The position numbers were made by a program, and so were the translations under genes. From an uncultured Gemmatimonadales bacterium (GTDB taxonomy: Bacteria; Gemmatimonadota; Gemmatimonadetes; Gemmatimonadales; Gemmatimonadaceae), in NCBI GenBank assembly GCA_963701965.1, contig OY969695.1, forward strand, positions 2,880,001 to 2,944,000: a DNA stretch of 64,000 bases, in the 5' to 3' direction. A model generated the notes under the pieces. It worked only from the letters and a program-made list of their open reading frames with translations. It was not told the DNA's origin and did no database searches. This document shows positions 8,406 to 34,115 of the stretch, in pieces (the first letter of the stretch is position 1; every line of letters starts with the position of its first letter).

Positions 8406-9035
8406 CACAGAGACGAACGACGGACCTGTCGCGTCGGCTCAGACATACGTCGCCTCAATTGCATTTTTGTATCCGAACGTCGTGCCTCGCGTACACGTGG
8501 GGTGGTTATCTGCACCGACGGTGGCGAGTCGACCGTCCGCATCCCTTCGGAGTGCGAGCCGAGAGACGGAGGCGAATCAGCGCACCAATGCTTGTCTCGT
8601 TCCATGACACTCACTTAATGCGCACGCTCCCGGAGTCGGCTTACGCGTTTCCGAGCAGTTCGATTCCATAAGTCATTCCAGCAAAGGCGCTTCGGAGCGA
8701 TTGTTGTAGGGTTGGTGGGGTCGTGCACCGTCTTCTTATTCACCGTTTTCGCACGGCATGTCTCCTCAGCGTCACGCGTCGACGACGCCTCCGTCACATA
8801 GCGGCAGAATGTCCGGGATGAGACTCCCCACTCCTCAGCGGGAGCGTTTTTGGCGCGCATGGTTGGTCATCCCTGCGCCGTTTTCGCGGAGCTTGTGGTC
8901 CCATCGCTCTATCAGATTTTGCGATGAGCTCTAGTCGTACGAAGAAACCGCCCGGGCGTCGATATTGAAACCTCCCCCTTGTAGGTCGGTGCTCATGATC
9001 CAGGTGATTGATCGCCTGCCGCGGAGTATGACGAC

Positions 9036-10340: not shown

Positions 10341-13300
10341 ATGCCAAACGCCGGCCTACGCCTAACACTCGGCGTCCTTTTTGTCACGTTCCTATCTGAC
10401 GCGACAGCGCAACCAGCGAACCAAGTCGTCCAAACGTCCTTCCTCGGGGAAACATCCGTCACCGGTGCCGGAGGAACGCTAGATCGACTGATCGATTTGG
10501 ACCTAAGAGCGGTATCCAGACGCGAGGCACTGTTGCGTATCGGAACCGCGGGCGGCGTGACGATCGGAATCAGGGTGCCTTCCGATCGTAATCTGACCGA
10601 GCCTGTTTCTCTCTACGCTCGATCCCTCACGGTCCGTGCGGCTCTCAACGCAATTCTCAAGGGGACAGGTCTTGGCGCCGAGCTGATCGGCGTCCGCGAC
10701 ATCATCATATCGGCAGATTCGGGGCGCGTTCTCACAGATCCAGACGCGTTCGGCATGATTCGTGGCAGTGTACGAGACCGCCGTACCAACGAGCAATTAG
10801 CTGGTGTCGTTGTGCGCATACGAGGGACATCGAGTCACGCGACCTCCGGTCTAGATGGGCGGTATCAGATTGGCCGCGTCATTGGGGGCGATTTGCGCGT
10901 CGAGGCCCGGCGGCTCGGTTATGCACCCGCGACGATTGCCATATCTCTGCACCCTGGCGACACTGCCACGGTGGATTTTCTTCTCAGTCCCTCCGCATAT
11001 CAACTCGACCAAGTAGTCACCACGATCACCGGTGATGCGCCGCTCTTGCAGCTCGGCAATTCCATAGGAACCATTCGCGCTGATAGCGTCGCTGCGACTC
11101 AGCCTGTCACCGATTTGTCCGACATCATCAATGCTCGCGTTCCGGGGGTGCAGGTCATTCTGAACGGTGGGCTGACGGGCGCATCGCCACAAATCAACAT
11201 TCGTGGACAAAACAGTGCGCAGCTCTCGAATCAGCCTCTGTTGTACATCGACGGCGCGCGCGTTGACAACAGCGTCAGCAACGGAGTTGGCAGCGGTCGG
11301 TCGAACGACATCAGTCCCGATGAAATTGAGTCCATTGAGATCGTCAAGGGTCCATCCGCCGCGACTCTGTACGGGACAGACGCTGCAAACGGCGTCATCG
11401 TCGTGCGGACCAAGCGAGGTGCTTCGGGGCGCCGTCTCTGGAGCGCTTACGCGGAATCGGGAACGATCACCCTCGACCGTGACCGTTTTCCAGAGAGCTA
11501 CTATCCCTGGGGAACGACCGTTGGCGGCGCACCCGCTGTCGGTCAATGCACGTTGCAGACCGGTGTCGCCACGGGTGCGTGTACCATCGATAGCGTAACG
11601 CGCTACTCACCGCTGAGGAATCTGGCCACGACGCCAATTGGCACTGGCCAAAGGCAAGCATATGGGTTGCAGCTTAGCGGCGGCGGATCGGACATGCGGT
11701 ACTTTCTTTCCGGTGCGTTCGACGACGAGACGGGTTATCTTAAGCTCCCGACCTCCGATCGGGACGCGTTTGCGGCGGAGCGCGGCGCGGACGGCTTTAG
11801 TCAAGACGACCTGCATCCCAACGGCTTGCAGCGTGCGAGCGCGCGAGAGAATGTCACCGCATCGCTGGGTCGCGATGCCGATCTTACGCTCTCTTCAAGC
11901 TTTTTAACGCAGAATTCCCGAATCCCGAATTCGCAGGTCATTGAGTTCGGTGTTTTCGGTCCTGGGTATCAAGACAGCACGGGCGGTTGGGCTCTGGGGC
12001 TGCGCCCCGCGTATTACATGCTGTCTCGAAACGATGAATCTGTCGATCATTTTACGGGTAGCGCGACGTCGAACTGGCGTCCTGCCTCCTGGCTTACCAC
12101 TCGAGCGACGGCAGGACTCGACTTCTCACTCGACTACTTGAATCAGCTCACTCGCGCCGGCGAGGGACTGCCAGGAGCGACCCAGGGTTCGCGCAACAGT
12201 TCGAAGACATCCAATACGCTTAACAGCATCGATCTCGGTGCGACGGCGTCGTTTGACTTAGCGCAATCCTTCACGTCCCGAACGTCCGTCGGTGCTCAGT
12301 ACAATCGTTCGACCTTACTGGTAACCGGCGCCGGAGCAACAAGTCTCTTACCGGGGGGAGTCGACGTATTTAGCGGAAGTACGCAATCCGCTGCCGAAGA
12401 GACGGTTGAAACCGTCGTTGCCGGTGCCTATGTCGAGCAGACGTTCGCCCTCAACGAACGACTATTCGTCACGGGGGCGGTGCGTGCCGACGGCTCTGGG
12501 AGCTTCGGGTCGGATTTTCAAACGGCGTACTATCCCAAGGGGAGTCTGTCCTGGCTGATCTCGCGTGAGTCGTTCTGGCCCGCAATTCCAGGCCTCAGTA
12601 ATCTGCGATTGCGCGCGGCGTACGGTGAAGCCGGAATCCAGCCTAGCCCGACAGCACGCCTTGCGAGAGAAGGGTACGTACAATCAATCACTGACGGCTC
12701 GCAGCAAGTTGGTGCGATTCTAACCAATGGTGCCAACCCGAATCTGAAGCCAGAGTTTCAACGCGAGTTCGAAGGCGGCTTTGATGCTGGATTCCTTGGT
12801 GGTCGAATTAATGTTGAACTCACGTACTATCAGAAGCACAGCACAGACGCGCTGAGTACTGTGCCACTGGGTCCGTCTATTGGGGGCCCATTTGGGTTCG
12901 AGACAATCAACGTGGGTTCTGTTAATAATCTGGGCTATGAAGCGCTGGTCAATGTCGTCGTTTTAAAATCACGCGACCTGGCCTTAGATCTTACAGCCAA
13001 CGGCTCGATCAATCACAACAAGCTTGTCCGTCTTGAATCGGGAGTCGTTGCTGGACTACCCGCCACGGGTGCGGCCACCAATGTTGCCGGGTATCCTGTT
13101 TCCTCGCTCTTTGACTACCCTATCACCCGCTTTTCCGACGCGAACCACAATGGGATCATCGACCCGTCTGAGATCACGCTCGGATCGTCACCTGTGTTTA
13201 TGGGTCAGACCTATCCCAAGACGCAGTTGACGGTGGGAGGCACGGTCGGTCTCCTGAATAACCACGTTCGCCTGAACGCCCAGCTCGACTATCGCGGTGG

Positions 13301-13688
13301 GTTCGTCATTCTCAATCAAGCCGCCGAATTCGGCTGTCTTCTAGGCTTCTGTAGAGCTACCAGTGTCGTAGGGAGCGATCTCCGCGACCAAGCGGCGGCG
13401 AGCGCCATTTTCACGGGACCCGGGAGTGCCGTTGGATACTATCAAGACGGCTCTTTCACGCGGTTGCGCGAAGTGTCGGTGACCTTCTCCATTCCCGACG
13501 GCATCGCGCGGCGACTACGTACCCGCACGCTTAGCGTGACGCTCGCTGGGCGAAACCTGGCACTGTGGACCAAGTACACGGGTCCCGACCCCGAGGTCAG
13601 CACCGCGGTCGGCGATCACTCATTTAATGATCAAGGGGCCGTACCGCCTGGGACGTACTGGATCGCTCGCGTCAACCTTGGTCTGTAG
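10341..13688 (+). CDS. SusC/RagA-family TonB-dependent receptor with N-terminal STN-like signalling domain
   Basis: Signal peptide, STN-like segment (VSLYARSLTVRAALNAILKGTGL), carboxypeptidase-regulatory-like domain, SusC plug signature DISPDEIESIEIVKGPSAATLYGTDAANGVIVVRTKRG, NPNLKPE and C-terminal ARVNLGL. Confidence 0.95.
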   Translation: MPNAGLRLTLGVLFVTFLSDATAQPANQVVQTSFLGETSVTGAGGTLDRLIDLDLRAVSRREALLRIGTAGGVTIGIRVPSDRNLTEPVSLYARSLTVRAALNAILKGTGLGAELIGVRDIIISADSGRVLTDPDAFGMIRGSVRDRRTNEQLAGVVVRIRGTSSHATSGLDGRYQIGRVIGGDLRVEARRLGYAPATIAISLHPGDTATVDFLLSPSAYQLDQVVTTITGDAPLLQLGNSIGTIRADSVAATQPVTDLSDIINARVPGVQVILNGGLTGASPQINIRGQNSAQLSNQPLLYIDGARVDNSVSNGVGSGRSNDISPDEIESIEIVKGPSAATLYGTDAANGVIVVRTKRGASGRRLWSAYAESGTITLDRDRFPESYYPWGTTVGGAPAVGQCTLQTGVATGACTIDSVTRYSPLRNLATTPIGTGQRQAYGLQLSGGGSDMRYFLSGAFDDETGYLKLPTSDRDAFAAERGADGFSQDDLHPNGLQRASARENVTASLGRDADLTLSSSFLTQNSRIPNSQVIEFGVFGPGYQDSTGGWALGLRPAYYMLSRNDESVDHFTGSATSNWRPASWLTTRATAGLDFSLDYLNQLTRAGEGLPGATQGSRNSSKTSNTLNSIDLGATASFDLAQSFTSRTSVGAQYNRSTLLVTGAGATSLLPGGVDVFSGSTQSAAEETVETVVAGAYVEQTFALNERLFVTGAVRADGSGSFGSDFQTAYYPKGSLSWLISRESFWPAIPGLSNLRLRAAYGEAGIQPSPTARLAREGYVQSITDGSQQVGAILTNGANPNLKPEFQREFEGGFDAGFLGGRINVELTYYQKHSTDALSTVPLGPSIGGPFGFETINVGSVNNLGYEALVNVVVLKSRDLALDLTANGSINHNKLVRLESGVVAGLPATGAATNVAGYPVSSLFDYPITRFSDANHNGIIDPSEITLGSSPVFMGQTYPKTQLTVGGTVGLLNNHVRLNAQLDYRGGFVILNQAAEFGCLLGFCRATSVVGSDLRDQAAASAIFTGPGSAVGYYQDGSFTRLREVSVTFSIPDGIARRLRTRTLSVTLAGRNLALWTKYTGPDPEVSTAVGDHSFNDQGAVPPGTYWIARVNLGL

Positions 13689-13825
13689 AGCAATTGCCGC
13701 GGTGCGTGCTCAACGCTCCGCGTTGCTCGTTACCAACGAATCCCGTCGCAATGGGCGAGTGACCCCCAATCATGTGGTGGCACTCTTCACACAGTGGAAC
13801 CATCTCCTCTAACGGATATCGCGGC

Positions 13826-15121
13826 ATGATCGCACACTTTTGGATTCGCGTAAGCAGGTCACGCGGACGTGCCTCGGCGGCGCTAATGGTCATAGCCATC
13901 TTGGCCGGCTGCGACATAACTCACGTGGCATCGCCAAATGTGGTTACTCCGAGTCAATTTCAAAACGACACGGGTGCGCTCACGCTGCGTGCGGGAGCAA
14001 TTGCCGCCTTTGCTCAGGCATACAGCGACCAGATCGTAATGGCCGGCCTATTGTCGGATGAACTCACCGATCTCACAGGCAGTTTTAAGGCGGATCAGAG
14101 AATAATCGCGACCAACGGGAGCTTGGGGTCGAACTATCCTTATGATGAACTGAGTGGCGCGCGAATCAACGCGCTTTTGGCAATTCATGCGTTGGAACTG
14201 TATAGTCCATCTTCACGTCCTCAGATAGCCGAACTATTTGCGTATCTTGGGAATGTTGAGGTGTTCTTCGCCGAGAACATGTGCTCTGGGGTTCCTCTCG
14301 GAGTACTCGTTGCTGGCAATCCGAGCTATGGAAAGACCTTGTCGCGCCAGCAGTTGCTACAGCGAGCACTGGCTGATCTCGACTCTGCCTCACACTTCTC
14401 GGCCGCAAACGATTCCATAGCTAATCTTGCTCGGATTGCCCGCGCTCGTGCCTTGCTCGACTCGAACCTCGATCTTGCCAGTCGAGCCGCTCAAGTTGCG
14501 GATTCGGTGGGTGAGGGATTCGCTTACAGTACATCGTACGGCAATATCCCGAATCAACAGAACACGGTGTTTGGGGCGTTGAACTTGCGGGGTGTCGCAT
14601 CACTATCCGACCGCGAAGGTATCAATGGTCTGGATTTCATTAGCGCAAACGACCCAAGAGTGCCGCGCGACAGCCTTGGACCTGGAAGGTTTGGGATACT
14701 CAGCGATTCCAGTGTAAGCGCGCCGATCAAGCTCGCGAGTTGGATCGAGGCTCGACTCATTCGGGCTGAGGCCGATCTTCACGCTGGCAATGCGTCGGCT
14801 TGGCTAGCAGATCTCAATGCCTTGCGTGGCGACTCTGCCACCACTGGAGTTCCCGGTCTAATGCCGCTGGCAGATCCCGGCTCCAGCAATGCGCGCATAG
14901 ACCTCATGTTCCGTGAGCGTGCATTCTGGCTGTTCGGGTCCGGCCACCGACAGGGTGACTTACGACGCCTCGTCAGGCAATACAAGAGGCAAACGGAATC
15001 CGTGTTTCCTACGGGGCAATATCGGAATGGACCACAGCGGTACGGTACGGACGTCGTATTTGTACCGTTCGGCGAATCGAATAATCCAAACTTCGCGGGA
15101 TGCTTCGATCGTCTTCCGTAG
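13826..15121 (+). CDS. SusD/RagB-family surface lipoprotein
   Basis: Lipobox ILAGC and SusD C-terminal motifs EARLIRAEA and RERAFWLFGSGHRQGDLRR; directly after SusC. Start 13826 preferred over 13772. Confidence 0.9.
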   Translation: MIAHFWIRVSRSRGRASAALMVIAILAGCDITHVASPNVVTPSQFQNDTGALTLRAGAIAAFAQAYSDQIVMAGLLSDELTDLTGSFKADQRIIATNGSLGSNYPYDELSGARINALLAIHALELYSPSSRPQIAELFAYLGNVEVFFAENMCSGVPLGVLVAGNPSYGKTLSRQQLLQRALADLDSASHFSAANDSIANLARIARARALLDSNLDLASRAAQVADSVGEGFAYSTSYGNIPNQQNTVFGALNLRGVASLSDREGINGLDFISANDPRVPRDSLGPGRFGILSDSSVSAPIKLASWIEARLIRAEADLHAGNASAWLADLNALRGDSATTGVPGLMPLADPGSSNARIDLMFRERAFWLFGSGHRQGDLRRLVRQYKRQTESVFPTGQYRNGPQRYGTDVVFVPFGESNNPNFAGCFDRLP

Positions 15122-15133
15122 AACCCCCATCAA

Positions 15134-17752
15134 ATGCGCTGCAAAGTGTTTGGGTCCTATCTGATATTGGCGGGCTGCTCAATGCAAGCATTGGGCGCGC
15201 AGTCGTCGCTTGGTACCAGCCATCCAACAACCATAGAGGATCTTCTCGTACAAGAGCAGGTCAGCCAAATCGCTCCTTCTCCGGACGGGCGCTGGATTGC
15301 CGTAGTTGTGGACCGAGCGAGGACAGCGAGCGAGTTCTACAGGTCATATAGCAATGACGTGCATGAACGGGGTGACGTGTGGCTGTTCGCTGTTAACGAC
15401 ACGGCCGGCCGCAATCTGACACATGGAGCCGCTCGAGGTGCTGGCTATTGGAGTCCCGTGTGGTCAGCCAGCGGTGATCGAATAGCAATGCTGTCCACCG
15501 AAGGGCGAGACAATGTTCGACTGTTGGTCTGGAGACTGTCCGACAATAGTCTCTCGCGTCTAAGTGATCGCGGTGTGGACCTTAATGCAGATTTCGGAGA
15601 GGGCGGCGGCATACCTCGCCGTTTCCAGTGGTTGGGTGACACAGCAATAGCTTTTGTCGCACTCCCCCCGGGTGAGGCGCCGATCACCTATGGCTACCTC
15701 ACGCAAATGCAGCGCGCCGCTACAACAATGTGGCCAATGGCGGAGCGAGGCGAATTGCCGACGCGCCGTGTATTCAATGTCGGCCCAGGCGCACCACCTC
15801 CTCCAGTGCCTTCGGCCCAATTGTTCGTGGTAGGTGTCTCCAATTCACGACTACGCTCTACTGGAACGTTCCCAGTGGTTGGCCTGGAACAACATCAGAT
15901 TGCCATGTCGCCCACGGGCCGCGCTGTAGCGGTCATTACACAGACTGCGTCCTATACACCAGACCGCTACCCCGTCACAGACAGTCGTGGCTTGGGCACA
16001 TGGCGACTTGGTGTTGCCCGATTGGATTCGTCCGAAGCAATACACTGGAGTTCAATCAATGTCCGGAAGCGCTCCTTCGATACACGGCAAATACGGCCAC
16101 GATGGTCAAGTGATGAGCGGTCCGTTGCGGCTATTGGCTACTCAAACGAAGCCGACAGCGCATCCGGTGTGGCGTATCTCATCTCTGCTTCGACTGGTAA
16201 AGCCGCGCGGCTCACGCCGGATAGTGAGGACGTCTCCGATCTAAGGTGGTCACCCGCTGGCTTCCTCGCTTACGCTGGAGTGCGAGCTCGCGGTTCGTTC
16301 GGGATGAGGATGCCGTCAGGCGCCGATTCATTGGTTGTCCCGACGCGTCGAGACTGGCTGCTAGTTCGCTCCGACAATGCGCGACCGACAAACATTACGT
16401 GGACGTTCGCGAACGTGTCACGCGACCTGCTGGTGTCTCGTGTCGGTGCGCAAGTGTACTTAGCTTCTGCTGGCGCGCTCTGGGCTATTGATCTCAACAC
16501 CGCCCACGCTCGTCGACTGACAGATACGTCAGTGTTCATGGCACAATCCATCCTGTGGCCTGACCCGACGACCGAGCGTGCGGGTTCAATACGCGAAGTC
16601 GTTGCGAGTACTCATTCGCGACTCCGGGTCGACGATCCAAGGCTGGTGTCGACTTTCACACGTGCGTCGGCGCCCGATGGCGTATGGTGTGTTGACGTGT
16701 CAGTCGGCCTGAACTCTGGCGCGGATCGTCCCGTGCTCATGCCGACGTCGGATGCAATCTTTCGCGATTTCATTCCCGCGAACCGTACTGCCGTCGTGAC
16801 CGCCGACCGTTGGGCCGGACAGCAAACTGTTTGGATTTCCGACATTTACCGAGCGCGCGTTGACACCGTGTTGTCCCTCAATCGCGAAGCGAACGCCCTA
16901 ATCGGGGCGCGCCGGATGTCGATCACCTATCTAGGCGCGGATGGCGATAGCTTGGGCGGCACGATTACGCTGCCCGTAAATTATGTCGCCGGCAGACGTT
17001 ACCCCCTCGTCGTAGACGTCTATGGCGGTACGTCTGCTGGTTCTGCCGATACGGTGGCGGAGTCGCCGAATCTCCTGGCAGCTCACGGATATGCGGTGCT
17101 CACTCCAAGTATGCCCTTGTCACATGCCGGCGAAATGTCCGACCCGTATATCGACATGCCTAAAGGCGTCATCGGCGCCGTCGACAAGGCAATCGCTATA
17201 GGGGTAGCTGACCCGGCGCGACTAGCACTCTTTGGTCACAGCTACGGCGGCTACAGCGTAATGTCGATACTGGCCTATACGCATCGCTTCCAAACGGCCA
17301 TTTCCTATGCGGGATTTGCCGATCTACTAAGTCTCTACGGCACACTCTCAGCCCCGTACCGTTATACATCTCAGGCTGCAGACGCGACGTTATTTCCGTG
17401 GTATTTGACTGAGGGAGGGGGAGCTCGCATGGGAGCTCCACCATGGTCCGACATGTGGCGCTATTGGCGCAATAGTCCCATCAGCTATCTGGACCGAATT
17501 CGCACGCCACTGCTCCTCATACATGGCGATGTCGATCCTAACGTACCGGTTGGACAAGCTGAGGAAGTTTTTAGCGGTTTGTACCGGCTCGGTGGAAGGG
17601 TGCGTTTCATTCAGTATAGCGGCGAAGGTCACGGTATAAATTCGCCTGCGAATATGCGCGACTTTTGGCACGAGGTCTTTGGCTGGCTCGACTCATTCCT
17701 GCTACCGAAAGCCACGTTGCAAGGCAAGGATTCGCACTTGGGCACGTCGTGA
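15134..17752 (+). CDS. S9 prolyl-oligopeptidase-family serine hydrolase (candidate lasso isopeptidase)
   Basis: Signal peptide, propeller-like repeats (SPDGRWIA, PVWSASGDRIA) and an intact triad: GHSYGG, HGDVDPNVP, GEGHG. Confidence 0.9.
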   Translation: MRCKVFGSYLILAGCSMQALGAQSSLGTSHPTTIEDLLVQEQVSQIAPSPDGRWIAVVVDRARTASEFYRSYSNDVHERGDVWLFAVNDTAGRNLTHGAARGAGYWSPVWSASGDRIAMLSTEGRDNVRLLVWRLSDNSLSRLSDRGVDLNADFGEGGGIPRRFQWLGDTAIAFVALPPGEAPITYGYLTQMQRAATTMWPMAERGELPTRRVFNVGPGAPPPPVPSAQLFVVGVSNSRLRSTGTFPVVGLEQHQIAMSPTGRAVAVITQTASYTPDRYPVTDSRGLGTWRLGVARLDSSEAIHWSSINVRKRSFDTRQIRPRWSSDERSVAAIGYSNEADSASGVAYLISASTGKAARLTPDSEDVSDLRWSPAGFLAYAGVRARGSFGMRMPSGADSLVVPTRRDWLLVRSDNARPTNITWTFANVSRDLLVSRVGAQVYLASAGALWAIDLNTAHARRLTDTSVFMAQSILWPDPTTERAGSIREVVASTHSRLRVDDPRLVSTFTRASAPDGVWCVDVSVGLNSGADRPVLMPTSDAIFRDFIPANRTAVVTADRWAGQQTVWISDIYRARVDTVLSLNREANALIGARRMSITYLGADGDSLGGTITLPVNYVAGRRYPLVVDVYGGTSAGSADTVAESPNLLAAHGYAVLTPSMPLSHAGEMSDPYIDMPKGVIGAVDKAIAIGVADPARLALFGHSYGGYSVMSILAYTHRFQTAISYAGFADLLSLYGTLSAPYRYTSQAADATLFPWYLTEGGGARMGAPPWSDMWRYWRNSPISYLDRIRTPLLLIHGDVDPNVPVGQAEEVFSGLYRLGGRVRFIQYSGEGHGINSPANMRDFWHEVFGWLDSFLLPKATLQGKDSHLGTS

Positions 17753-17880: not shown

Positions 17881-18063
17881 TTACGATCCCACTGTCGTGT
17901 CAGGCGCTTCCACGTCGTCTTCGAACGTCATGCCCGGCGGATTATCGACATAAACCCGAGCTGTAAGGCTACCTACCTCATGGCTCATCGAGAAAGGCCC
18001 ACCGAGCGTTCGCTTGCATGCAGATCCGTGGTCGGTAATGTGAGGTGCCACGTAGGCTCGCAA
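17881..18063 (-). CDS. Lasso peptide precursor A2 (60 aa)
   Basis: TTG start inferred by alignment to A1. Leader MRAYVAPHITDHGSACKRTL has YxxP and Thr(-2). Core GGPFSMSHEVGSLTARVYVDNPPGMTFEDDVEAPDTTVGS has Gly1/Glu9. Confidence 0.85.
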   Translation of the reverse strand: MRAYVAPHITDHGSACKRTLGGPFSMSHEVGSLTARVYVDNPPGMTFEDDVEAPDTTVGS

Positions 18064-18155
18064 AACCCTCTGTTCTTGGTTTAGTCCTCGCCGATCGACT
18101 GTTTGCTTCACGCGTCCGATTCTCCCAGGGGTATATAAGGTCAGTTCGGGCAATG

Positions 18156-18219
18156 CGTGATCGCCGACTGCAGTAGTGGGATCTGGCCAAGGTTTGTTCA
18201 CCTGCAATCGGCGATCACG
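18156..18219 (-). terminator. Stem-loop between the two precursor genes
   Basis: 18-bp arms CGTGATCGCCGACTGCAG (18156-18173) and CTGCAATCGGCGATCACG (18202-18219). The single mismatch is a G:U pair on the minus-strand transcript. No U-tract. Confidence 0.55.
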
Positions 18220-18245
18220 TCCGCGCTAGCTTAGGTTCTGCGAGA

Positions 18246-18428
18246 TTACGATCCCACGGTCGTATCAGCCGCCTGAACGCCGTTCTCGAGCGTCATGCCC
18301 GGCGGGCTGTCAACATCGGCATGTCCCGTCAGGCTACCGGTTTCATGCGTCTGGCTAGCCAGGGATCCGAAAGTCTTGGCGACCACGCTGCCATGGTCGG
18401 TAAACCGGGGAGAATTGTACGCCTTCAT
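18246..18428 (-). CDS. Lasso peptide precursor A1 (60 aa)
   Basis: GGAGGT RBS. Leader MKAYNSPRFTDHGSVVAKTF has YxxP and Thr(-2). Core GSLASQTHETGSLTGHADVDSPPGMTLENGVQAADTTVGS has Gly1/Glu9. Confidence 0.92.
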   Translation of the reverse strand: MKAYNSPRFTDHGSVVAKTFGSLASQTHETGSLTGHADVDSPPGMTLENGVQAADTTVGS

Positions 18429-18469
18429 GTTACACCTCCGTGCCGAAAATTGTGATTTGCCGTCCACTA

Positions 18470-20320
18470 CTAGGCGGCTTGAGGGGTGGCCGCACGCGGC
18501 GGCCAGAGGCCAGATCTCACTTGAAGCCAGGTTTCCAAAGACAGCGCTGCGTAAAGGCGAATGACCGACGTTCCTCGACCGCGGCGAACGAGCGACATAG
18601 CGCCCCGCAGCTTGTCCCTTTGAATGCATCCGAGCTGAGCAAGAACAGGGTCTTTCAACATCGCCTTCAACTTCGACCGCTCCGCCGTAAGCGCCCAACG
18701 GGTACGTGCTCCGAGCGTTCCCTTGCCGACGCGATTTCGCACGCGATCCGGCAGTTCGCTGCCAAGAGCCTGTCGTAGAACCAGCTTTGTGACTCCCGGC
18801 TGCGCTATGAATTCCGGATTTAGACCGAGACAAAATTCGACCAACGGCCGATACAGGAACGGGTATCTAAGATCCACGTAGTGTTCGAAGGGTTCTCTCT
18901 CGATGAACGAAGGGAGTGCTTCGATTTGCCAGGCGAGCTCGCCATTGCCATAGCCGTCCGCACATTCCTCGTACCGACGCAGTCGCGACCGCCGGTCTGC
19001 GATCGCATATTGCTTCTCAAAACGGGGCTCCAGCCATGCAGGGAGCCCGCGCCGCGGCGGAATCAGCTTTCGGCGTAGCACCTGCGGAAGAAGAGGCTGT
19101 ATGGCGCATGCATACGCCAGACGCCAAAACGACGTGTGTGTGGTCGTTGCACGGCGCGCCATTGCGTCAATGGCGCGAAGAATCCGGCCGCCTGCAATGA
19201 GGTCGGTGATGAACCCAAGGTTCCCCGTCAGGTAGTGATCTGACCCGTATCCGCTCAGGAGCACTCTCCCCCCAGATTCTCGGACGATCCTACACATCTC
19301 TTGATCCCGCGCGTAGTACGGATACATCAGGCGTGGCTGATCAGTAATCGGCAGCCTCGTGGCATCTTCCCGCCACGGCCAGTAGTCGGCGATTCGTGCA
19401 TTGGGTATCTCGTACATACGCAGTACTTCGCGCACAAAATCGCTTTCATCGCCGCTACCGAGTGAATCAACGATCGTAACGGTACCCGCGAGGCCTGACG
19501 ATGCTCTACCCGCGCGATGAAGTCGCTCGGCCGCCGCGACGATGGATGACGAATCCAATCCTCCAGACAACTGCGCCCAGGTGCGCCCCTGACCTTCTAT
19601 GCGCGCCCCCACCGCCTCATCGAGGAGTAGCCGCAGCTGTTCTGCCGCCATCTCCGCGGACAGGCAATCGGTGCCACTCCATACGAGATCTCGTGCCCGC
19701 CAAAAATATTCGATACGGATGCCACGGGCCGACGCGACTAACATTGCGCCCGCCGGCACGGCACTCACCCCCCGATAAATGGTCCGCTCGGAAGTGACAC
19801 ACCCGTGGACTAGGAAATCGGCAATGTATTCGTAATCCACCTCGTCATCCGCCGCGATCAGTGATGCATGTGTCGATAGCCATATGCCGTTAGTCGTCGT
19901 GCGGTAGTAGAGAGGGGCCACCCCGAAGCAATCCCGCGCAGCGACGACTTCTTGTCGCCCCGGACGCCATGTCACGATCGCAAAATCCCCAGTTATAGCG
20001 CGCATGGCAGCGGCGCCGTTAAGCAGCGACTGGGCAGCGCACATCATGTCGCGTTCCCCCTTCTCGTGGCCGCTGTCAATGTCGACGAGGCTCGGCGCAT
20101 CGAGCCGTGCCATACCAACACTCACAGCGTCGTCGCTACCGACCGTCGACACTCTCGGCGTTGCCTCGTTGTGGCTGTCAATGTAAGCGGCAAAGCCGCC
20201 ACCGGTCATCCATGTGCCCTTGCCGGCAGCAATCCTCGAGTGACGCAATGCCACAATGTGGCGCTCATCGTGCGATAGGGTTCGGCCATCATAGTTGATG
20301 GCGCACACAAAGGCGCTCAT
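18470..20320 (-). CDS. Lasso cyclase (C protein, asparagine-synthetase-like)
   Basis: AARDCFGVAPLYY, LSGGLDSSSI, LSGYGSD, RYPFLYRPLVEF; ATGA-coupled to B2. Confidence 0.93.
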   Translation of the reverse strand: MSAFVCAINYDGRTLSHDERHIVALRHSRIAAGKGTWMTGGGFAAYIDSHNEATPRVSTVGSDDAVSVGMARLDAPSLVDIDSGHEKGERDMMCAAQSLLNGAAAMRAITGDFAIVTWRPGRQEVVAARDCFGVAPLYYRTTTNGIWLSTHASLIAADDEVDYEYIADFLVHGCVTSERTIYRGVSAVPAGAMLVASARGIRIEYFWRARDLVWSGTDCLSAEMAAEQLRLLLDEAVGARIEGQGRTWAQLSGGLDSSSIVAAAERLHRAGRASSGLAGTVTIVDSLGSGDESDFVREVLRMYEIPNARIADYWPWREDATRLPITDQPRLMYPYYARDQEMCRIVRESGGRVLLSGYGSDHYLTGNLGFITDLIAGGRILRAIDAMARRATTTHTSFWRLAYACAIQPLLPQVLRRKLIPPRRGLPAWLEPRFEKQYAIADRRSRLRRYEECADGYGNGELAWQIEALPSFIEREPFEHYVDLRYPFLYRPLVEFCLGLNPEFIAQPGVTKLVLRQALGSELPDRVRNRVGKGTLGARTRWALTAERSKLKAMLKDPVLAQLGCIQRDKLRGAMSLVRRGRGTSVIRLYAALSLETWLQVRSGLWPPRAATPQAA

Positions 20321-20757
20321 AGCGTCGGCAACGGCAACTGAGCCAACCCGCGCGTAATTTCGCCAGTCTCATTAAGCGGCGCCCCATTGTACTCAACCCA
20401 CGCGTGCGCCGTGAAGCCGTACGGCTGCACCCCCAGGCGAAAGACAGAGTCCACTCCGCTCCGCCGAAGCAGGTGATGCAGTGTCAGCGACTGCTCCAGA
20501 CAGTACGCGCGACCGGGAAAGAATGCACCTGCGACCGCCACTTTCCGTACTATTTCGGTGAGCACCGTCGTCTCGACGCACTGTCGTGGGCGCACCGTGG
20601 CGCATAGTGCATTACTAAGTCTCATCGTCCGACCGAGGCCGCCAACGCGCAATGCAAGCTTGATCCAGATAAGCGTCACTACGCAGGTCATGGTACCGGG
20701 TACCGCTAAACGTCTGCCAGTCATGGCAGCTTGAGATCGGTCATCGTGTGCGCGCAT
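20317..20757 (-). CDS. Lasso leader peptidase (B2, transglutaminase-like)
   Basis: YCLEQSL (catalytic Cys) and LGVQPYGFTAHAWVE (catalytic His). ATG at 20757 overlaps the B1 stop (TGATG). Confidence 0.93.
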   Translation of the reverse strand: MRAHDDRSQAAMTGRRLAVPGTMTCVVTLIWIKLALRVGGLGRTMRLSNALCATVRPRQCVETTVLTEIVRKVAVAGAFFPGRAYCLEQSLTLHHLLRRSGVDSVFRLGVQPYGFTAHAWVEYNGAPLNETGEITRGLAQLPLPTL

Positions 20758-21056
20758 CAGACGGCTACGAGCTGTGACTGATAGAGATCTAGCAAAAGCG
20801 TCACCACGTCCCGTTCGAGACGTTCGCGAGGCACGTCGTAATTCGGTGCTAACTGGTCGACGATAGCTGCCACCGTGTGATACTGCTCGAGCAACGACCA
20901 CACATCACCACCGATTTCGTTGAGGGAGTAGTACCGACTCCGCTTCACGTCAAGAAGCACTGTGGCTTGGCCATGCCGAGTGAAAATGATATGCCTATGT
21001 GCTGAGATAGTGGCGGATAGCCGAATGGTTGCGTCGTTCGCAGATCGCTGGGGCAT
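20757..21056 (-). CDS. Lasso RRE (B1, PqqD-family)
   Basis: TVLLDVKRSRYYSLNEIGGDVWSLL...YDVPRERLERDV is a typical PqqD pattern. Start 21056 gives 99 aa; the track ORF extends to 21179. Confidence 0.92.
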   Translation of the reverse strand: MPQRSANDATIRLSATISAHRHIIFTRHGQATVLLDVKRSRYYSLNEIGGDVWSLLEQYHTVAAIVDQLAPNYDVPRERLERDVVTLLLDLYQSQLVAV

Positions 21057-21309
21057 ACGCCTTACCGGGATGATGGAACGCGCTGTCATCGACACGTGCG
21101 CGAACGTTACGCCACCATGCGTTGGGACGATAGCGTCGGTACGGGCCAGATACCTCCGTGACAGGCTGACAGCACGCATCGCTCATTGAGTCACGAATAC
21201 ACGTACGGTCTATCCTGTCTTTACGACGCTAGGACGAGAACGTGGTGATCGCACGACCCACGGCGCCTCAGAGCGATCGGCACCGCCACACTCTACGTAG
21301 GAGATACGA

Positions 21310-22209
21310 ATGTCTTTGGCGGACTATGCCGTCGGGAAGATTCTGAGCGGCAGATATCGCATCCTCGAACATAGGGCAGGTGGTGGGCAGGCAATCGTGC
21401 TCCGTGTGGAGCACACCTTCCTGCACCGCCAGCTGGCGATGAAAATTGCCAGACGGCGGATCAGCGTTGGCCCACCGCGAATCCTCGAGGAGGCTGAGAC
21501 TCTAGCCGCGATAAATCATCCTGGCATCCCCGCAATCGTCAATGCAGGGGTATTGGCAGACGATCGTCCCTACCTGGTCTCGGAATGGATTGATGGCCGG
21601 TCGCTCGCTGAATTAGCCGCCGTGCACGCCTGTAGCCCGCGTGCCGCTGTTCAAACCATGGCTGCCTTGAGCGCCATTGTTGGCGATTTGCATGCGCTGG
21701 GCGTTCTACATCGTGACCTGAAACCAGCGAACATCCTGATACCTATGAACGGGGAGCACCCAGAGTATGCAACCCCCAAGCTGATTGACTTCGGCGTTTG
21801 TGACACTCTAAATGTCGACGTCGCCGGCGGAGTGCGCACAACTGGCAGCGGACGCACCAGTGGCACGGCGCTCTACAGCGCGCCGGAACAGATCGCTGGA
21901 CGGCGTCAATCAATGACGACCGACGTATTCGGTCTGGGTGCAATCCTGTTCGAGTTGCTGTGCGGCCATCCTCCGCTCGCTCCCACCGGGGAGGTGTCAC
22001 TGTTCGAGCTGGATTGCGGAGGTGAAAAGATGGCAATTCCCGTCGCAGTCAATCGACTTATCGCCAATGTGCCGGTACCGGAGATTGCGGGCGTGCCAAC
22101 CAGTGTTCGCGAAATTGTTCAACAGTGCCTGCGCAACGAACCAGAGGGACGCCCACAATCCGCCGCTGAAGTGGCGGTGACGCTGCAAGGCGCGTTAGCG
22201 ACGTGGTAG
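21310..22209 (+). CDS. Hanks-type Ser/Thr protein kinase (stand-alone catalytic domain)
   Basis: AGGAG RBS; GGGQAIV, AMK, HRDLKPAN, DFG, GTALYSAPE and DVFGLG are all intact; no TM segment. Confidence 0.93.
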   Translation: MSLADYAVGKILSGRYRILEHRAGGGQAIVLRVEHTFLHRQLAMKIARRRISVGPPRILEEAETLAAINHPGIPAIVNAGVLADDRPYLVSEWIDGRSLAELAAVHACSPRAAVQTMAALSAIVGDLHALGVLHRDLKPANILIPMNGEHPEYATPKLIDFGVCDTLNVDVAGGVRTTGSGRTSGTALYSAPEQIAGRRQSMTTDVFGLGAILFELLCGHPPLAPTGEVSLFELDCGGEKMAIPVAVNRLIANVPVPEIAGVPTSVREIVQQCLRNEPEGRPQSAAEVAVTLQGALATW

Positions 22210-22361: not shown

Positions 22362-24254
22362 TCAGCGGTATCCGGCAGCCTGCATCGAGAAGAGTTCACT
22401 GTAGAGCCCTCCCCGACCGAGCAAATCAGTGTGGGTGCCATGATCTGCAATGCAGCCACCCTGAAGCACGATGATCCGGTCCGCCATTCGCACAGTGGAG
22501 AATCGATGCGAAATGAGAACGGCGGTGCGCGCCGTCGCGAGTTCCGAGAAGCGACTGAACACCTCATATTCGGCGCGTGCATCAAGCGCTGAAGTCGGTT
22601 CATCTAATATGAGAACTTGGGCTTGACGCATGTACGCGCGTGCGATCGCGACCTTCTGCCACTCGCCTCCGGACAAGTCTATGCCCCCATCAAAACGACG
22701 TCCGAGAACTTGGCGATAACCGGCGGGTAACTGCGTTAGCAGAGACGATGCCAGGGAACGTTCGGCCGCCCTCGCAATTGCAGGATGCACCGGGTGCTTC
22801 AAATCACCCTTGAGATCGTCGAGCTCATCGAAATGATTGCGAGACGCCTCGATTTCTCCGACGCCAATGTTTTCGTCAAACCGAAAATCGTAACGAACAA
22901 AGTCTTGAAAAATGACGCCAATCGCGCGACGCAGCGATGCGATGTCGTATTCGCGGAGATCAACGCCATCAAGGAAAATCCGACCTTCGGTCGGGTCATA
23001 GAGTCGCGTCAGCAGTTTTGTGAGAGTCGTCTTGCCTGCGCCGTTCTCGCCTACGAGAGCGATGCGTTCACCGACACCCAGCGCCAGGTCAATGTGCCGT
23101 ACGGCCCATCGCTCACTGTTGTGGTAGCGGAACCCGACATCCTGAAAAACGAAGCCTTCGTGAATGTGGGCCGGTACCAGGACGGCGTTGTGCCGGGCAG
23201 CGATAGTCGGACGAATCTCGAAGTAAAGAAAGAGATCGCGGAGATACAGTGTTTGTTCGTAGATGTCACGCCCCGTCTGGAGAATGCTCGCGATGTACGA
23301 ACGACTGCCGGAGAAAGACGAAGCCAGGAAGGTTAAAGCGCCAATGGTTATGCGGCCGCGCATCGCATCTACGAGGATAAACACATAGGCGACGTAGTAT
23401 CCAAGAGTGCCCAAGATTGGCAGGGCACCACTGATGAAGGCGCGCTGAACCGCCAACGCCTTGTTTTCCTCGTAAAATTGCTGCGAAAGGCGCCGAAAAC
23501 GATCAGTCAGCCAGGGTGCGAGACCAAACATCTGCACTTCTTTGGCAGAGCGATCGCTGGACCCCACATAACGAAGATACTCGAGCATGCGCCGTCCTTC
23601 GGTGCGGCCGAAGAACAAGGAGTAGGCTCGGCGACTGTAGTGCGTCTCGCCGAGAAAACTTGGAAGGATGGCTAGCACCAGCAGTGCCAGCAGCCACGGG
23701 TTGAACGCAACGATCGCCCCACTCAAGCTGAGCAGCGTCAGCGCATACTGCGCGATGCTAAGGAGCTGGCCGAGTAGGCCAAGCCGCGCGGTCGAGTTTT
23801 GCCGCGCACGCTCGAGCAGGTCGTAAAACTCCGGATTCTCAAACTGCGCGAGATCGAGCGTCGCCGCGTGCTCCATGATGCGCACACTGACGTGGTTCGT
23901 GAACAGATCCCCAAGCAAAACCTCGACCAACGTCGACGCTCGCGAGATCGCCTGATCCGCGACGACGATCGAGATCTCGATCGCCACCAGCGTCCACAAG
24001 TGATGCCAATCCGGCCCCCGGAGCCGCGCCTTCACCACCGCGTCGATGATGAGCTTGGCCACCCACATCGTGGCGAGCGGCGTCGCGGCGCGCACGATGC
24101 GCAGTACCATCATCGCCACCGTGAGCGGCCAGCTCGTCTCCCAGATGAGCGCGATGAACTTGGGAACGTAGCGGAGCGCCGAGATACGCTCGCGAAGCTT
24201 GGGCGGCTCCTTGGTCGTGCCGGCGCCGGCGCCGTTGCCGTTGTGCGTCGCCAT
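22362..24254 (-). CDS. ABC exporter, fused TMD + ATPase
   Basis: N-terminal TM helices, Walker A GENGAGKTT, signature LSGGEWQ, Walker B ILDEP, ISHR. Confidence 0.95.
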   Translation of the reverse strand: MATHNGNGAGAGTTKEPPKLRERISALRYVPKFIALIWETSWPLTVAMMVLRIVRAATPLATMWVAKLIIDAVVKARLRGPDWHHLWTLVAIEISIVVADQAISRASTLVEVLLGDLFTNHVSVRIMEHAATLDLAQFENPEFYDLLERARQNSTARLGLLGQLLSIAQYALTLLSLSGAIVAFNPWLLALLVLAILPSFLGETHYSRRAYSLFFGRTEGRRMLEYLRYVGSSDRSAKEVQMFGLAPWLTDRFRRLSQQFYEENKALAVQRAFISGALPILGTLGYYVAYVFILVDAMRGRITIGALTFLASSFSGSRSYIASILQTGRDIYEQTLYLRDLFLYFEIRPTIAARHNAVLVPAHIHEGFVFQDVGFRYHNSERWAVRHIDLALGVGERIALVGENGAGKTTLTKLLTRLYDPTEGRIFLDGVDLREYDIASLRRAIGVIFQDFVRYDFRFDENIGVGEIEASRNHFDELDDLKGDLKHPVHPAIARAAERSLASSLLTQLPAGYRQVLGRRFDGGIDLSGGEWQKVAIARAYMRQAQVLILDEPTSALDARAEYEVFSRFSELATARTAVLISHRFSTVRMADRIIVLQGGCIADHGTHTDLLGRGGLYSELFSMQAAGYR

Positions 24255-24531: not shown

Positions 24532-25347
24532 CTACCACCGCTCCGGAGGATCCGGCGGATCGTCCAGGTGCAGATCCGAGATCGCGCGCCGCGCGTGAGT
24601 ATCCGGACGCACCCACCCCCACAACATCTTCCGCTTGATGTCCTCGAGCGGCGAGATCATCGTCCACCCGTCCCCGGTCTTCTCGATCAGCTTCGACTCG
24701 TCGGGGTGATGCAGCTTCGCCTTGATGTTCCGAAAAACGCCGGTATACTCGCGACTCGTCGGCGACACACGCCCGCCGAAGTACGCGTCGATCAACGTGT
24801 CGTTCTTCACGCTCTTGCCGTTCACGATCAGCAAGTGGAACAGGACGTCGAGCTCCTTGCCGACGACCCGGAACGTGCGGTTGCCGCGATGCACGACGCC
24901 CGAGCGCAAGTTGATCTTGATCTCGCCGATCTCGACGATCGGCTCGCCCGGCGGCTCCGGCTTGGCCGACCCCTTGAGAAACCCCACGACCTGACGCTCC
25001 AACTGCTCGGCGTCGAACGGCTTCTCGATCAACGACAGACCAAGCTCGATCCGGTCCAGATCCACGAGCTCCGCGGGATAGCCCGTCATCAACAACACCG
25101 GCATCGTGCTGCCGCTCTTCCGCATGATCCGGTAGACGTCGATGCCCCTCACATTTGGCAAGAACACATCGAGCAACAACATTGCCGGCGCCGGGATCGT
25201 CAGCACCGCCCGCAAACACCGCGGCGCATCCAACGCCATGCGCACGTGGTACCCGGCCTCGCGCAACGTTCGATCGGCCAATGCCAGGACCGCGGGCGCG
25301 TCCTCGCATACCACAATCGTCGATTCCGCCGTCGATGAACCAACCAT
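24532..25347 (-). CDS. OmpR-like response regulator
   Basis: Receiver (IVVCED, LLLDVFLP, MTG, EKPF) followed by a winged-helix-like domain. Confidence 0.8.
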   Translation of the reverse strand: MVGSSTAESTIVVCEDAPAVLALADRTLREAGYHVRMALDAPRCLRAVLTIPAPAMLLLDVFLPNVRGIDVYRIMRKSGSTMPVLLMTGYPAELVDLDRIELGLSLIEKPFDAEQLERQVVGFLKGSAKPEPPGEPIVEIGEIKINLRSGVVHRGNRTFRVVGKELDVLFHLLIVNGKSVKNDTLIDAYFGGRVSPTSREYTGVFRNIKAKLHHPDESKLIEKTGDGWTMISPLEDIKRKMLWGWVRPDTHARRAISDLHLDDPPDPPERW

Positions 25348-25633
25348 AGGCCCGGGCCAGTGAAAAAGGGCAGGCTAGGAAGTTGTCAGAAGAAACGCAC
25401 GGCGCAAGGCTCTAGCGAGCTCAACCATACACCGAAGTGAGCCGCAGGTGAGCCAGAATACGCATATTGGTTTGCTTGTGCGTCGTTACATGACGGTCCG
25501 TCCCTTGAACTGACCACGTAACGGGGGATCGCTCGTTGATCCGCTTCGACTTCCGATCCGCGTAGGCAACGCTTCCCTCGAAACGTATAGTATGTAGCCG
25601 CATAGGGTACGGATGAGGCAAACTAGGCACCGT

Positions 25634-25912
25634 ATGACACCACAGGCACCACAGCAGCCTATACCACAAACTGGTTTGGATCGGCCTGAAGCGCCCGCGC
25701 GTATCACGTTCGCGACAAACGTGCGACGCGCGCGGACGCAGTTGGGCATCTCCCAAGAAAAGCTCGCCGAACTGTCCGGGTTACACCGGACATTCGTCAG
25801 CTCGGTGGAACGGGGAGAGCGCAACATCTCGGTCGACAACATGGAACGCGTCGCGTCCGCGCTGCGCGTCAAGTTGGCGATCCTCCTCACCCCCACGCCG
25901 ATCATCGATTGA
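25634..25912 (+). CDS. XRE-family HTH transcriptional regulator
   Basis: NVRRARTQLGISQEKLAELSGLHRTFVSSVERGERNISVDNMERVASAL. Start 25613 or 25634. Confidence 0.92.
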   Translation: MTPQAPQQPIPQTGLDRPEAPARITFATNVRRARTQLGISQEKLAELSGLHRTFVSSVERGERNISVDNMERVASALRVKLAILLTPTPIID

Positions 25913-26054
25913 CGGCGAGGACACACCGGTAACCCACCACCGGTGGTGAGGCGACCGAGCGGCTGTCGGTGCACTTCCCACGCGTCCCGGCGATCCCGCT
26001 GAGAACGCGCCAGCCGCGGATCGACCCACGACTTGCCACACGAGACAAGCGCGC

Positions 26055-27086
26055 CTAACGCGCCGCCGCAGACGGCGCCGTCCCGTACGGCTCGTCGAAC
26101 ACGAGATCCCGCGCCACCAACACCACGAATGACGTCCCGCCCCGCACCGTGATCACCGGCGTGAGTTGGGCGTCGGCGCGCAACATCTCGAGCGTCCGCT
26201 CGGAGATCTGCTCGCCGAACGATCCCGCCACGACCTGGCCCGCGCTCGGCGTCGTATAGGGCGCGCCCGCGCCGGCGTTGGGTTGACTCAACTGCCCCGC
26301 CGCGCCGACCAGCGACAATAGCGCGGCGTCGATATACGCGTGGGCGATATGCGTGTCCACCGCGCCGCGCAGCCCGGCCGTCCCGCTCTCGTCGCCGGCT
26401 TCGAATCCCGGCAGCGCCATCGAACGCCCATCAGGAAAAAGGAGACGCGTCCATACCACGAGCAACGCGTCCTCCCCGCGGCCCACCTGCGTGTCGTAGC
26501 GCCCAATGAGACGGGAGCCGCGCGGCACCAATACCCAACGCTGGCGCGGCGTGTCGTACACGTCGCGCGTGACTTGGGCGACAACCTGACCGGGTATCGT
26601 CGAACGGATCTCGGTCACGAGCGCAACGGACACCACGGTGCCGGTCTGCACGGTGTACGGTGAATCCAACGCGTGCACGCTCGACGACGTGTCCAACCGC
26701 TCGGCCGCGGACAAGAACTGCGCGTGGGGCGCGGTCGATGGCGGCGCGTCGGACGCCGGCGCTCTCTCGCGCGCCGTGCGTACCAACGGTGCGCTCACTA
26801 ATGCGCGGGTGTACGACGTTGGTACGGGTTGGGGAAGTGGGGCGCTCATGATACTGGATACCGGGCGCACCGCAACGCGATGCGAGGTATCGGGAGTGGG
26901 ACTGGGAAACGATGGACGCTGCGCGGCCACGGGCCGCGGCGCCGTGGGATGGTCGGGCGCCACGGGACGCACCGCCGACCACAGAACGACACACGCGGTA
27001 ACGCCGGCAACGATCGCCGCGGCGAGCAGCGCGGTGTGATTGAGACGCGCGGGCTTGGGCGGGGTCGGTCGATAGGCCGAGCTCAC
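26055..27086 (-). CDS. trbI: T4SS TrbI/VirB10
   Basis: TM plus Pro-rich linker; TEIRSTIPGQVVAQVTRDVYD, VPRGSRLIGRY, VVWTRLLFPDG. Confidence 0.92.
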   Translation of the reverse strand: MSSAYRPTPPKPARLNHTALLAAAIVAGVTACVVLWSAVRPVAPDHPTAPRPVAAQRPSFPSPTPDTSHRVAVRPVSSIMSAPLPQPVPTSYTRALVSAPLVRTARERAPASDAPPSTAPHAQFLSAAERLDTSSSVHALDSPYTVQTGTVVSVALVTEIRSTIPGQVVAQVTRDVYDTPRQRWVLVPRGSRLIGRYDTQVGRGEDALLVVWTRLLFPDGRSMALPGFEAGDESGTAGLRGAVDTHIAHAYIDAALLSLVGAAGQLSQPNAGAGAPYTTPSAGQVVAGSFGEQISERTLEMLRADAQLTPVITVRGGTSFVVLVARDLVFDEPYGTAPSAAAR

Positions 27087-27092
27087 GATGCA

Positions 27093-28579: not shown

Positions 28580-28586
28580 GGTTGCC

Positions 28587-32481: not shown

Positions 32482-32482
32482 C

Positions 32483-34055: not shown

Positions 34056-34115
34056 TGGTCTCCTGGGAGAGAGGGTGATCTCTACCAGTCAAGACACACG
34101 CCGAGGCCTCGAGGA

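Follow-up and report, generated by a model that had tools for sequence, protein, structure and literature searches.

We report a candidate tailoring kinase in a lasso peptide gene cluster located within a window of 64,000 nucleotides from an uncultured Gemmatimonadales bacterium (contig OY969695.1, positions 2,880,001 to 2,944,000; "the window" refers to this whole stretch). The cluster is accompanied by a gene encoding a stand-alone Hanks-type Ser/Thr kinase of 299 amino acids (aa). We propose, with a probability of about 0.58, that this kinase is a dedicated tailoring enzyme that phosphorylates the acidic, Ser/Thr-rich tail of the precursor peptides, most likely at Thr37 of a D-x-T motif. 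A prediction made earlier from the nucleotide sequence alone (the original prediction) had offered two readings, convergent tailoring by a different class of kinase or a dedicated regulator of the cluster. Co-occurrence and covariation with the precursors are consistent with a kinase dedicated to the cluster, and of the two readings tailoring is the more probable. Tailoring is also favoured over chance, because kinases of the same branch travel with a distinct type of precursor.

The kinase gives a Pfam Pkinase match of 116.5 bits (cut-off 31.7), without a second domain, and all its catalytic residues are kept: K45, E61, H134-R135-D136, K138, N141, D160-F161-G162, A191-P192-E193, D205 and R281, which cover the catalytic Lys, the alpha-C Glu, the HRD, DFG and APE motifs, the alpha-F Asp and the Arg of subdomain XI. 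The predicted model is a single domain with the bilobed protein-kinase fold (predicted template modelling score, pTM, 0.86). The nearest structures are PknB, PknA and StkP, of which PknB is the top Foldseek match (E 4e-23, TM 0.78). The maximum hydropathy over 19 residues is 1.49 and the protein therefore has no membrane helix; neither a sensor nor a membrane domain was detected by the Pfam scan and the hydropathy analysis. The HPr-kinase families of Pfam and NCBIfam gave no match at E 0.01, Pkinase being found instead. By domain, motifs and fold, the protein is thus a Hanks-type Ser/Thr kinase whose phosphotransfer is predicted, and its description in the original prediction as intact, soluble, domain-only and divergent from B1 is borne out. 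Its ATG start codon is preceded by an AGGAG ribosome-binding site.

The neighbouring genes form a lasso peptide cluster according to the features of the precursors (A1 and A2), the recognition element B1, the leader peptidase B2 and the cyclase C (Table 1), and a threaded product is predicted. Both precursors contain Tyr4 and Pro7 (YxxP), Thr19 (Thr-2), Gly1, Glu9 and a C-terminal DTTVGS. For B1, the lasso-specific PqqD models stay below their cut-offs. On the minus strand the order is B1, B2, C, A1, A2, with overlapping stop and start codons at B1/B2, where the ATG of B2 lies on the stop codon of B1, and at B2/C. The kinase gene is divergent from B1 across a gap of ~250 bp (B1 start at 21056), in which a scan for promoters and terminators found nothing, and it is convergent with an ABC transporter gene (24254-22362). 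A run of SusC, SusD and S9-peptidase genes (10341-17752, plus strand) is convergent on A2. For the S9 protein, NF033523 (AtxE2-type isopeptidase) is the best NCBIfam match, yet it scores far under the cut-off.

The GC content of the lasso block is 56-60%, compared with 67% for the genome. The GC content at third codon positions (GC3) is 0.62 for the kinase gene, 0.57-0.65 for the genes from SusC to B1, and 0.85-0.89 for the flanking response regulator, VirB and Gsp genes. Because its codon use agrees with that of the cassette, the kinase gene belongs compositionally to the lasso cassette and not to the flanking frame, and so lies, as claimed, in the same A/T-richer block as the lasso genes. 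Its position between B1 and the ABC gene is also as originally described, but the label "exporter" for the latter is a presumption, since in its conservation across loci (69-80% identity) this gene belongs more to the frame than to the cassette (27-52%). Within the ABC gene (22362-24254), GC3 is 0.93 over the first 100 codons, giving a frame-like 5' end, and 0.64 thereafter, which suggests a recombination boundary inside the gene.

In the source genome of the window (G000; other G-numbers denote the genomes compared, and L-numbers the loci extracted) 41 open reading frames (ORFs) match the kinase profile, the window kinase included. A single kinase near a single cluster therefore needed a comparative test. 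When the window kinase alone was searched against 200 other genomes of the family, the best non-self matches were those of G171, G003, G002 and G005. Lasso genes lie at most 1.5 kb away from the matches ranked 2-4 (G003, G002 and G005), and were not found at the remaining 11 of the 14 best non-self loci. A profile built from five kinases, which included the four lasso-adjacent ones, was then run against 401 family genomes (E 1e-58, best 5 candidates per genome). It matched 6 of the 401 genomes, namely the four with lasso-adjacent kinases plus G171 and G568, whose kinases are longer proteins without a lasso match within 8-9 kb. The B2 family PF13471 is present in 258 of the 401 genomes (a tally that includes 3 flagged as unpublished), and most lasso-like clusters are therefore without such a kinase. 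Conversely, of the 79 generic kinase loci among the matches listed (1.21 Mb), 0 had a match to C, B1, B2 or A. No further member of the kinase branch was found in a phylum sample (400 genomes, E 1e-60, best 5 candidates per genome) or in an order sample (250 genomes, E 1e-62, best 9 candidates per genome). When metagenomes were scanned with the window kinase alone, the outcome was a single generic kinase locus lacking lasso genes, and a plasmid search gave generic kinases only, all below 60% identity. Recurrence of the kinase beside homologous clusters, proposed originally as a check, is thus seen in G002, G003 and G005, and the distinct precursor type travels along; judged from these comparisons, a chance link between kinase and lasso genes is unlikely.

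The source genome contains a second lasso cluster (L022; G000:C1:4339700-4342400), consisting of B1, B2, C, one precursor with a 19-residue core and a TonB-dependent receptor, with close counterparts in G001, G004 and G005. There is no kinase within ~20 kb of it. The next kinase-profile match of this genome is 19 kb from either lasso cluster.

The lasso-adjacent kinases of G002, G003 and G005 are 29-32% identical to the window kinase in the alignment (31-33% in the family search). We constructed a careful tree of 42 domains that included 14 paralogues from the source genome and left out long-branch and near-duplicate rows. In this tree the four lasso-adjacent kinases fall in a branch of 14 rows (support 97/91), composed of 12 stand-alone kinases (the four lasso-adjacent ones and 8 metagenomic proteins, 250-320 aa) and 2 longer proteins, and all 14 own-genome paralogues lie outside it. 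A quick tree of 80 rows with a larger set of own-genome paralogues gave the same grouping, again with no paralogue inside the branch. The alignment and the model reveal branch-specific residues, including P145, R198, Q200, R249 and P257, and an insert of two strands that precedes helix G; the added Arg residues of the C-lobe could bind an acidic tail. The sister group is formed by longer kinases of 520-560 aa (P0287-P0294 and L032), and the 3 that were checked all have a hydrophobic C-terminal segment. These kinases are a possible source of the stand-alone branch. In the G002 member (L034:766-1728), HCD replaces HRD and there is no activation-loop Thr at the aligned position, which hints that the branch may be independent of activation-loop phosphorylation.

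The precursors of clusters with and without such a kinase differ. The 8 precursors of the three complete kinase clusters can be aligned, and have in common invariant residues in the leader, Gly1 and, close to the end, Asp and Thr two positions apart. Their tails read DTTVGS (twice), DSTPGT, DSTFGT, DSTASGDLRC and PDNT (three times). In each of the 8, the core is 31-40 residues long and D-x-T falls within the final 10 residues, whereas the precursors of 14 kinase-less loci have D-x-T near the end in 0 of 22 cases and cores of 15-27 residues. These 22 control precursors were chosen by eye from motif scans, with ~10 sequences dropped as not precursor-like and several loci giving no precursor; two control loci (L023 and L029) are truncated where their contigs end, and the lack of a kinase there rests on the 401-genome profile search. 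A precursor profile run against 241 genomes gave full-length matches only in kinase-bearing genomes, and a protein search with the precursor alignment yielded no precursors beyond those that match the three known genomes.

That both window cores end in DTTVGS, as pointed out in the original prediction, is correct, but this is weak evidence alone since A1 and A2 are two paralogues. They are identical at 34 of 60 residues (57%), and at 24 of 40 in the core; the chance that the last six residues all match is 0.035, and that of any run of six matching is 0.53. The identity of the two tails was therefore rejected as a sign of selection. The analogy originally drawn with PadeK, which phosphorylates a C-terminal Ser, survives in part. 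Of the 8 precursors, 2 end in Ser, 5 in Thr and 1 in Cys, and a terminal Ser/Thr (7 of 8) is thus a second candidate site. However, a conserved terminal Ser as a rule of the family was rejected, Ser being present in only 2 of 8, and the invariant residues are the D and T of D-x-T. Additional precursors were observed in G005: two satellite genes on contig C261 (L185:1498-1650 and 1989-2144), upstream of SusC and ~11 kb from the cyclase gene, encode peptides with the PDNT end that the in-cluster precursor also has.

An internal Thr is usually engaged by Hanks kinases through contacts with the residues on either side of it. In the available part of one study, PknA-dependent phospho-Thr sites are reported to be enriched for upstream acids at -1 and -3 to -6 (PMC7164672). 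For these two reasons Thr37 is the first candidate: if the kinase tailors the precursor, we consider this residue the probable site, the terminal residue (Ser40) a considerably less probable one, and modification at several sites the least probable of the three.

The gene order at the four loci shows how the kinase gene has been kept. In the window, SusC-SusD-S9 is followed by A-A-C-B2-B1 in reverse, with the kinase gene divergent to B1. In G003, SusC-SusD-S9 is followed by the kinase gene in reverse and by B1-B2-C-A-A-A in the forward direction, so that the kinase is again divergent to B1 while the orientation of the operon is opposite. In G005, B1-B2-C-A-kinase all lie in reverse after SusC-SusD-S9, the kinase gene being directly downstream of the precursor gene and co-directional with it. 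In G002, the kinase gene is divergent to B1 at a contig end, and is followed by unrelated high-GC genes. G000, G003 and G005 have a frame of ABC, response regulator, HTH, VirB and FecR/ECF genes in common, with Gsp genes in G000 and G003; this frame is missing on the kinase side in G002, where its response regulator has no match at E 1e-30. Across the loci, identity is 49-92% for most frame genes and 37-46% for a few. The other cargo varies, with a DUF6065 and a CxxCxxCC protein in G005, and insertion sequences (IS) and unknown ORFs in G003. The point that counts is that, through inversions and with the other cargo changing, the kinase gene has kept its place beside B1 or A.

Several observations made at these loci concern their surroundings. 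The frame at window positions 24532-38012 is conjugative-element-like in its predicted gene content: it includes the response regulator, HTH and VirB-like genes (the latter named by eye), a FecR/ECF pair, a beta-lactamase-like protein and a histidine kinase, and is syntenic in G003 and G005. The DUF6065 protein (L025:12062-12874) and the CxxCxxCC-like protein (L025:15709-16872) of G005, neither of which was seen in the window cluster, are possible extra tailoring enzymes. In G003, an IS21-like transposase pair, identified by eye (L017:12299-14211), lies between the precursor genes and the ABC gene, and the reading frame of the latter (L017:15900-17840) stops at codon 468.

Some of these results weigh against the proposal that the kinase tailors the precursors. 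Because of the shared frame, G000, G003 and G005 represent one inherited locus with a fast-changing cassette and not three events; the pattern may reflect one ancestral acquisition, and probably has one origin. All four genomes with lasso-adjacent kinases belong to one genus. The three kinase-linked cyclases do not form a clade, and a monophyletic set of such cyclases is therefore unsupported by the cyclase tree. The highest-ranking match of the unbiased search (G171) is a longer relative, situated at the end of a contig with no lasso gene in 8 kb. The 12 stand-alone kinases have a support of only 78/72 as a clade, and the genomic context was read for 4 of them, the other 8 being metagenomic proteins. 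Regarding the motif, D-x-T occurs elsewhere in the core in 4 of 22 control cores, and shuffled S/T/D-rich cores yield it in 5-18%. The Fisher p of 0.0015 overstates the difference, because the motif was chosen with the kinase-positive set already in view and the positive precursors are related to one another. The comparison covers 3 clusters; the precursor of G002, the one independent context, is unassembled. Regarding the site, the PknA motif positions given in the available part of PMC7164672 exclude -2, where the Asp of D-x-T is located, and the G005 peptides end at the Thr of D-x-T with no residue beyond. Finally, the alpha-D Arg position of PknB, which we equate with the acid-reading Arg of bioRxiv 2025.01.12.632604, aligns with Ala100 in the window kinase.

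The foremost alternative to phosphorylation of the precursor tail is that the kinase is a dedicated regulator whose target is the transporter, a transcription factor or one of B1, B2 and C, with D-x-T kept for another reason, for instance as a binding site of SusD or of the S9 enzyme. Proteins are the normal substrates of Hanks kinases, and the closest structures are those of PknB, PknA and StkP; divergence from B1 at 3 of the 4 loci is also as often found with regulators, and SusC, SusD and S9, which co-occur in the three full clusters, could be readers of the tail. However, the kinase is without a sensor or membrane domain, the neighbouring response regulator is unmatched in G002, and in G005 the kinase gene follows the precursor gene in the same direction. 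Moreover, the locus L024, which has the same type of SusC/SusD/S9 genes (43-46% identity), has no kinase in 19.9 kb, and its precursors have short cores with hydrophobic tails lacking D-x-T. We therefore regard regulation as unlikely, although it is the best of the alternatives.

Somewhat less probable still is a passenger role: the kinase gene, perhaps encoding a stand-alone anti-phage kinase, would belong to the variable cargo of a conjugative element and would have been inherited along with the lasso genes while having no connection to them. The same VirB frame at three loci and the large number of kinases in the genome fit this explanation, as do matches of the kinase to PD-T4-6 defence-kinase models of up to 162 bits and the SIR2/ThsA-like gene at 6115-6960. 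The PADLOC matches, however, look like generic kinase similarity: 32-34 different kinase models, which have no stated cut-offs, were matched per protein (34 for the window kinase). In addition, the other cargo differs between loci while the kinase stays by B1 or A through rearrangement, the G002 locus is without the frame on the kinase side, and the covariation of the precursors would be left unexplained. Improbable, finally, is the use of the phosphate as a dehydration intermediate from which an unlinked lyase would form dehydrobutyrine or dehydroalanine as in class III/IV lanthipeptides. In its favour are a weak similarity of the kinase to the LanL and LanKC kinase-domain models (75 and 36 bits, far under cut-off) and a dehydroalanine-containing lasso peptide from a hybrid system, known by its title (reference 372 of PMC13352647). 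Against it, the window cores are without Cys, no lyase domain was found in the kinase or the scanned cluster neighbours, there is no conserved extra gene in the clusters, and PF17914 was found in 0 of 4 genomes (PF03536 also matched 0 of 4, but likewise no control genome).

On the preferred reading, that of a precursor-tailoring kinase, the following pathway can be proposed. The kinase would meet the linear precursor in the cytoplasm, probably while B1 holds it, as in the BsfK and PadeK systems, and would transfer a phosphate from ATP; the linear form is the likely substrate because a cytoplasmic kinase can reach the peptide only before export. B1 and B2 would then take off the 20-aa leader, and C would close the Gly1-Glu9 ring, leaving a loop and tail of 31 residues. 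The ABC transporter would export the phosphopeptide. In the last and weakest step, suggested by the gene content, SusC/SusD might re-import the peptide and the S9 enzyme might open its ring in the periplasm, in line with the catch-and-release model of lasso peptides. The acidic phospho-tail could act as the carrier of a metal ion or as a recognition tag, and the phosphate is probably final because no lyase was found. A wider scenario, which we put forward tentatively and as doubtful, is that stand-alone kinases of this type came from membrane-anchored signalling kinases and were recruited as tailoring enzymes of peptides that are made by the ribosome and modified after translation (RiPPs). They would act on the longest lasso peptides (up to 40 residues) and provide a phosphothreonine-containing acidic tail as a metal-binding or recognition handle in SusC/SusD catch-and-release, as a second, convergent route to phosphorylated lasso peptides.

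Table 1. Features of the lasso cluster and its neighbourhood, in window positions.
Feature	Position	Strand	Evidence
Stand-alone Hanks-type Ser/Thr kinase, 299 aa, candidate tailoring kinase	21310..22209	+	PF00069, catalytic motifs, PknB-like predicted fold, kinase tree branch
Precursor A1, 60 aa, ATG start: 20-aa leader, 40-aa core, predicted Gly1-Glu9 ring	18246..18428	-	Translation, YxxP, Thr-2, alignment with 7 relatives
Precursor A2, 60 aa, TTG start: 20-aa leader, 40-aa core, predicted Gly1-Glu9 ring	17881..18063	-	Translation, 34/60 residues as in A1
A1 tail DTTVGS: D35-x-T37 and terminal S40, candidate phosphosites	18249..18266	-	D and T invariant in 8/8 precursors
A2 tail DTTVGS	17884..17901	-	Translation
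Lasso cyclase C, asparagine-synthetase-like, 616 aa	18470..20320	-	PF00733 104 bits, above cut-off; best NCBIfam NF033535 170 bits, below cut-off 525
Leader peptidase B2 (transglutaminase-like); longest ORF to 20901	20317..20757	-	PF13471 and NF033537 both above cut-off; frame check
RiPP recognition element B1, PqqD-like; likely start 21056, longest ORF to 21179	20757..21056	-	PF05402 69.2 bits, above cut-off; frame check
ABC transporter, presumed exporter	22362..24254	-	PF00005, PF00664
S9 prolyl-oligopeptidase-family protein, predicted signal peptide, candidate lasso isopeptidase	15134..17752	+	PF00326; NF033523 84.9 bits, below cut-off 400
SusD/RagB-like protein	13772..15121	+	PF07980 weak, 20.5 vs 23.1 bits; 46% identity to G003 and G005 counterparts
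SusC/RagA-like TonB-dependent transporter	10341..13688	+	TIGR04056 364.8 bits (cut-off 368.25); TIGR04057 above cut-off

Elsewhere in the window, two TPR proteins flank the SIR2-like gene with ThsA similarity (6115-6960), followed by an ORF of 206 aa (9036-9656) without a Pfam or PADLOC match; judged from these genes, the region 4798-9656 is a possible defence module. IS3-like and IS30-like transposase ORFs, identified by eye, and a 1644-aa RHS-repeat-like protein are present at 39213-41651 and 43283-48217, and a region similar to the N-terminus of the RHS-repeat-like protein begins at 59764.

A literature search covering titles and the starts of abstracts, few subscription journals and no supplements found no paper describing a lasso cluster that has a stand-alone Hanks kinase, and a kinase atlas preprint makes no mention of lasso peptides or RiPPs. 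In the available parts of the papers cited here, lasso clusters are reported in 29 Gemmatimonadota genomes without detail (PMC11316326); with PF13471 in 258 of 401 family genomes, lasso-like clusters appear far commoner in this group. A 2026 review has paeninodin as its phosphorylated example and lists 30 and 33 aa for the record holders of loop and tail (PMC13352647). Cores of 31-40 aa extend past the latter, with the 40-aa cores of the window exceeding both, and would make a test of the length of a threaded tail. If our proposal is true, a PknB-type lasso kinase would mean that lasso phosphorylation evolved twice and that a signalling kinase was turned into a natural-product enzyme, and it would also make available a soluble enzyme of small size with which phosphothreonine may be introduced into a short tag.

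With mycobacterial PknB and related Hanks kinases, the window kinase shares the fold and all catalytic motifs. It differs in being without the membrane and PASTA parts of PknB, in the residues and insert that its branch adds, and in the loss of the Arg at 203. In class III/IV LanKC/LanL enzymes, a Ser/Thr-kinase domain acts on a RiPP precursor, as proposed here, but there a fused or partner lyase eliminates the phosphate, and none was found here. According to its title, the paper of Ma et al. (2025) describes a dehydroalanine lasso hybrid system. The excerpted literature further describes phosphorylation of cyanobactins by PKc-like kinase domains, those of DolG and AphG (PMC12639078), which represent the same Ser/Thr/Tyr kinase fold working on a RiPP. 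Within RiPP biosynthesis, kinases of the PKc-like type are known from cyanobactins and lanthipeptides only. However, these domains are fused to a PatG-type macrocyclase and act late, on the cyclic peptide of another RiPP class, whereas here the kinase is an independent ORF beside lasso genes. Isopeptidase-type lasso clusters (AtxE2, astexins) likewise have an S9-family peptidase and a TonB-dependent transporter by the lasso genes (PMC13352647); the window cluster is distinguished from them by a SusC/SusD pair, the score of its S9 protein far under the AtxE2 cut-off, and the kinase.

The closest counterparts are the phosphorylated lasso systems of the paeninodin/pseudomycoidin type, whose kinases PadeK, ThcoK, SyanK and PsmK are HprK-like, with a His-Lys-Asp-Asp set and a P-loop, PadeK-type enzymes acting on the linear precursor at its C-terminal Ser (PMC9266682). 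BsfK phosphorylates Ser3, and B1 speeds phosphorylation of the precursor (PMC10368454). HprK-type linear polyphosphorylated peptides are also described (PMC13381572), and in the accessible text of PMC12639078 lasso kinases are regarded as HprK-like and contrasted with the PKc-like domain of DolG. The window cluster resembles the paeninodin-type and BsfK systems in its split B1/B2/C set with a kinase gene, in hydroxyl residues at the core end, and in the proposed action on the linear precursor. It differs from them, as far as the excerpts go, in that those kinases are HprK-like whereas this one is Hanks/PknB-like, and in its conserved D-x-T, its cores of 31-40 aa and the lack of a nucleotidyltransferase among the genes seen. 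Judged by its genes, a lasso cluster with a Hanks-type kinase would thus be a variant of the phosphorylated lasso systems, found so far in one genus.

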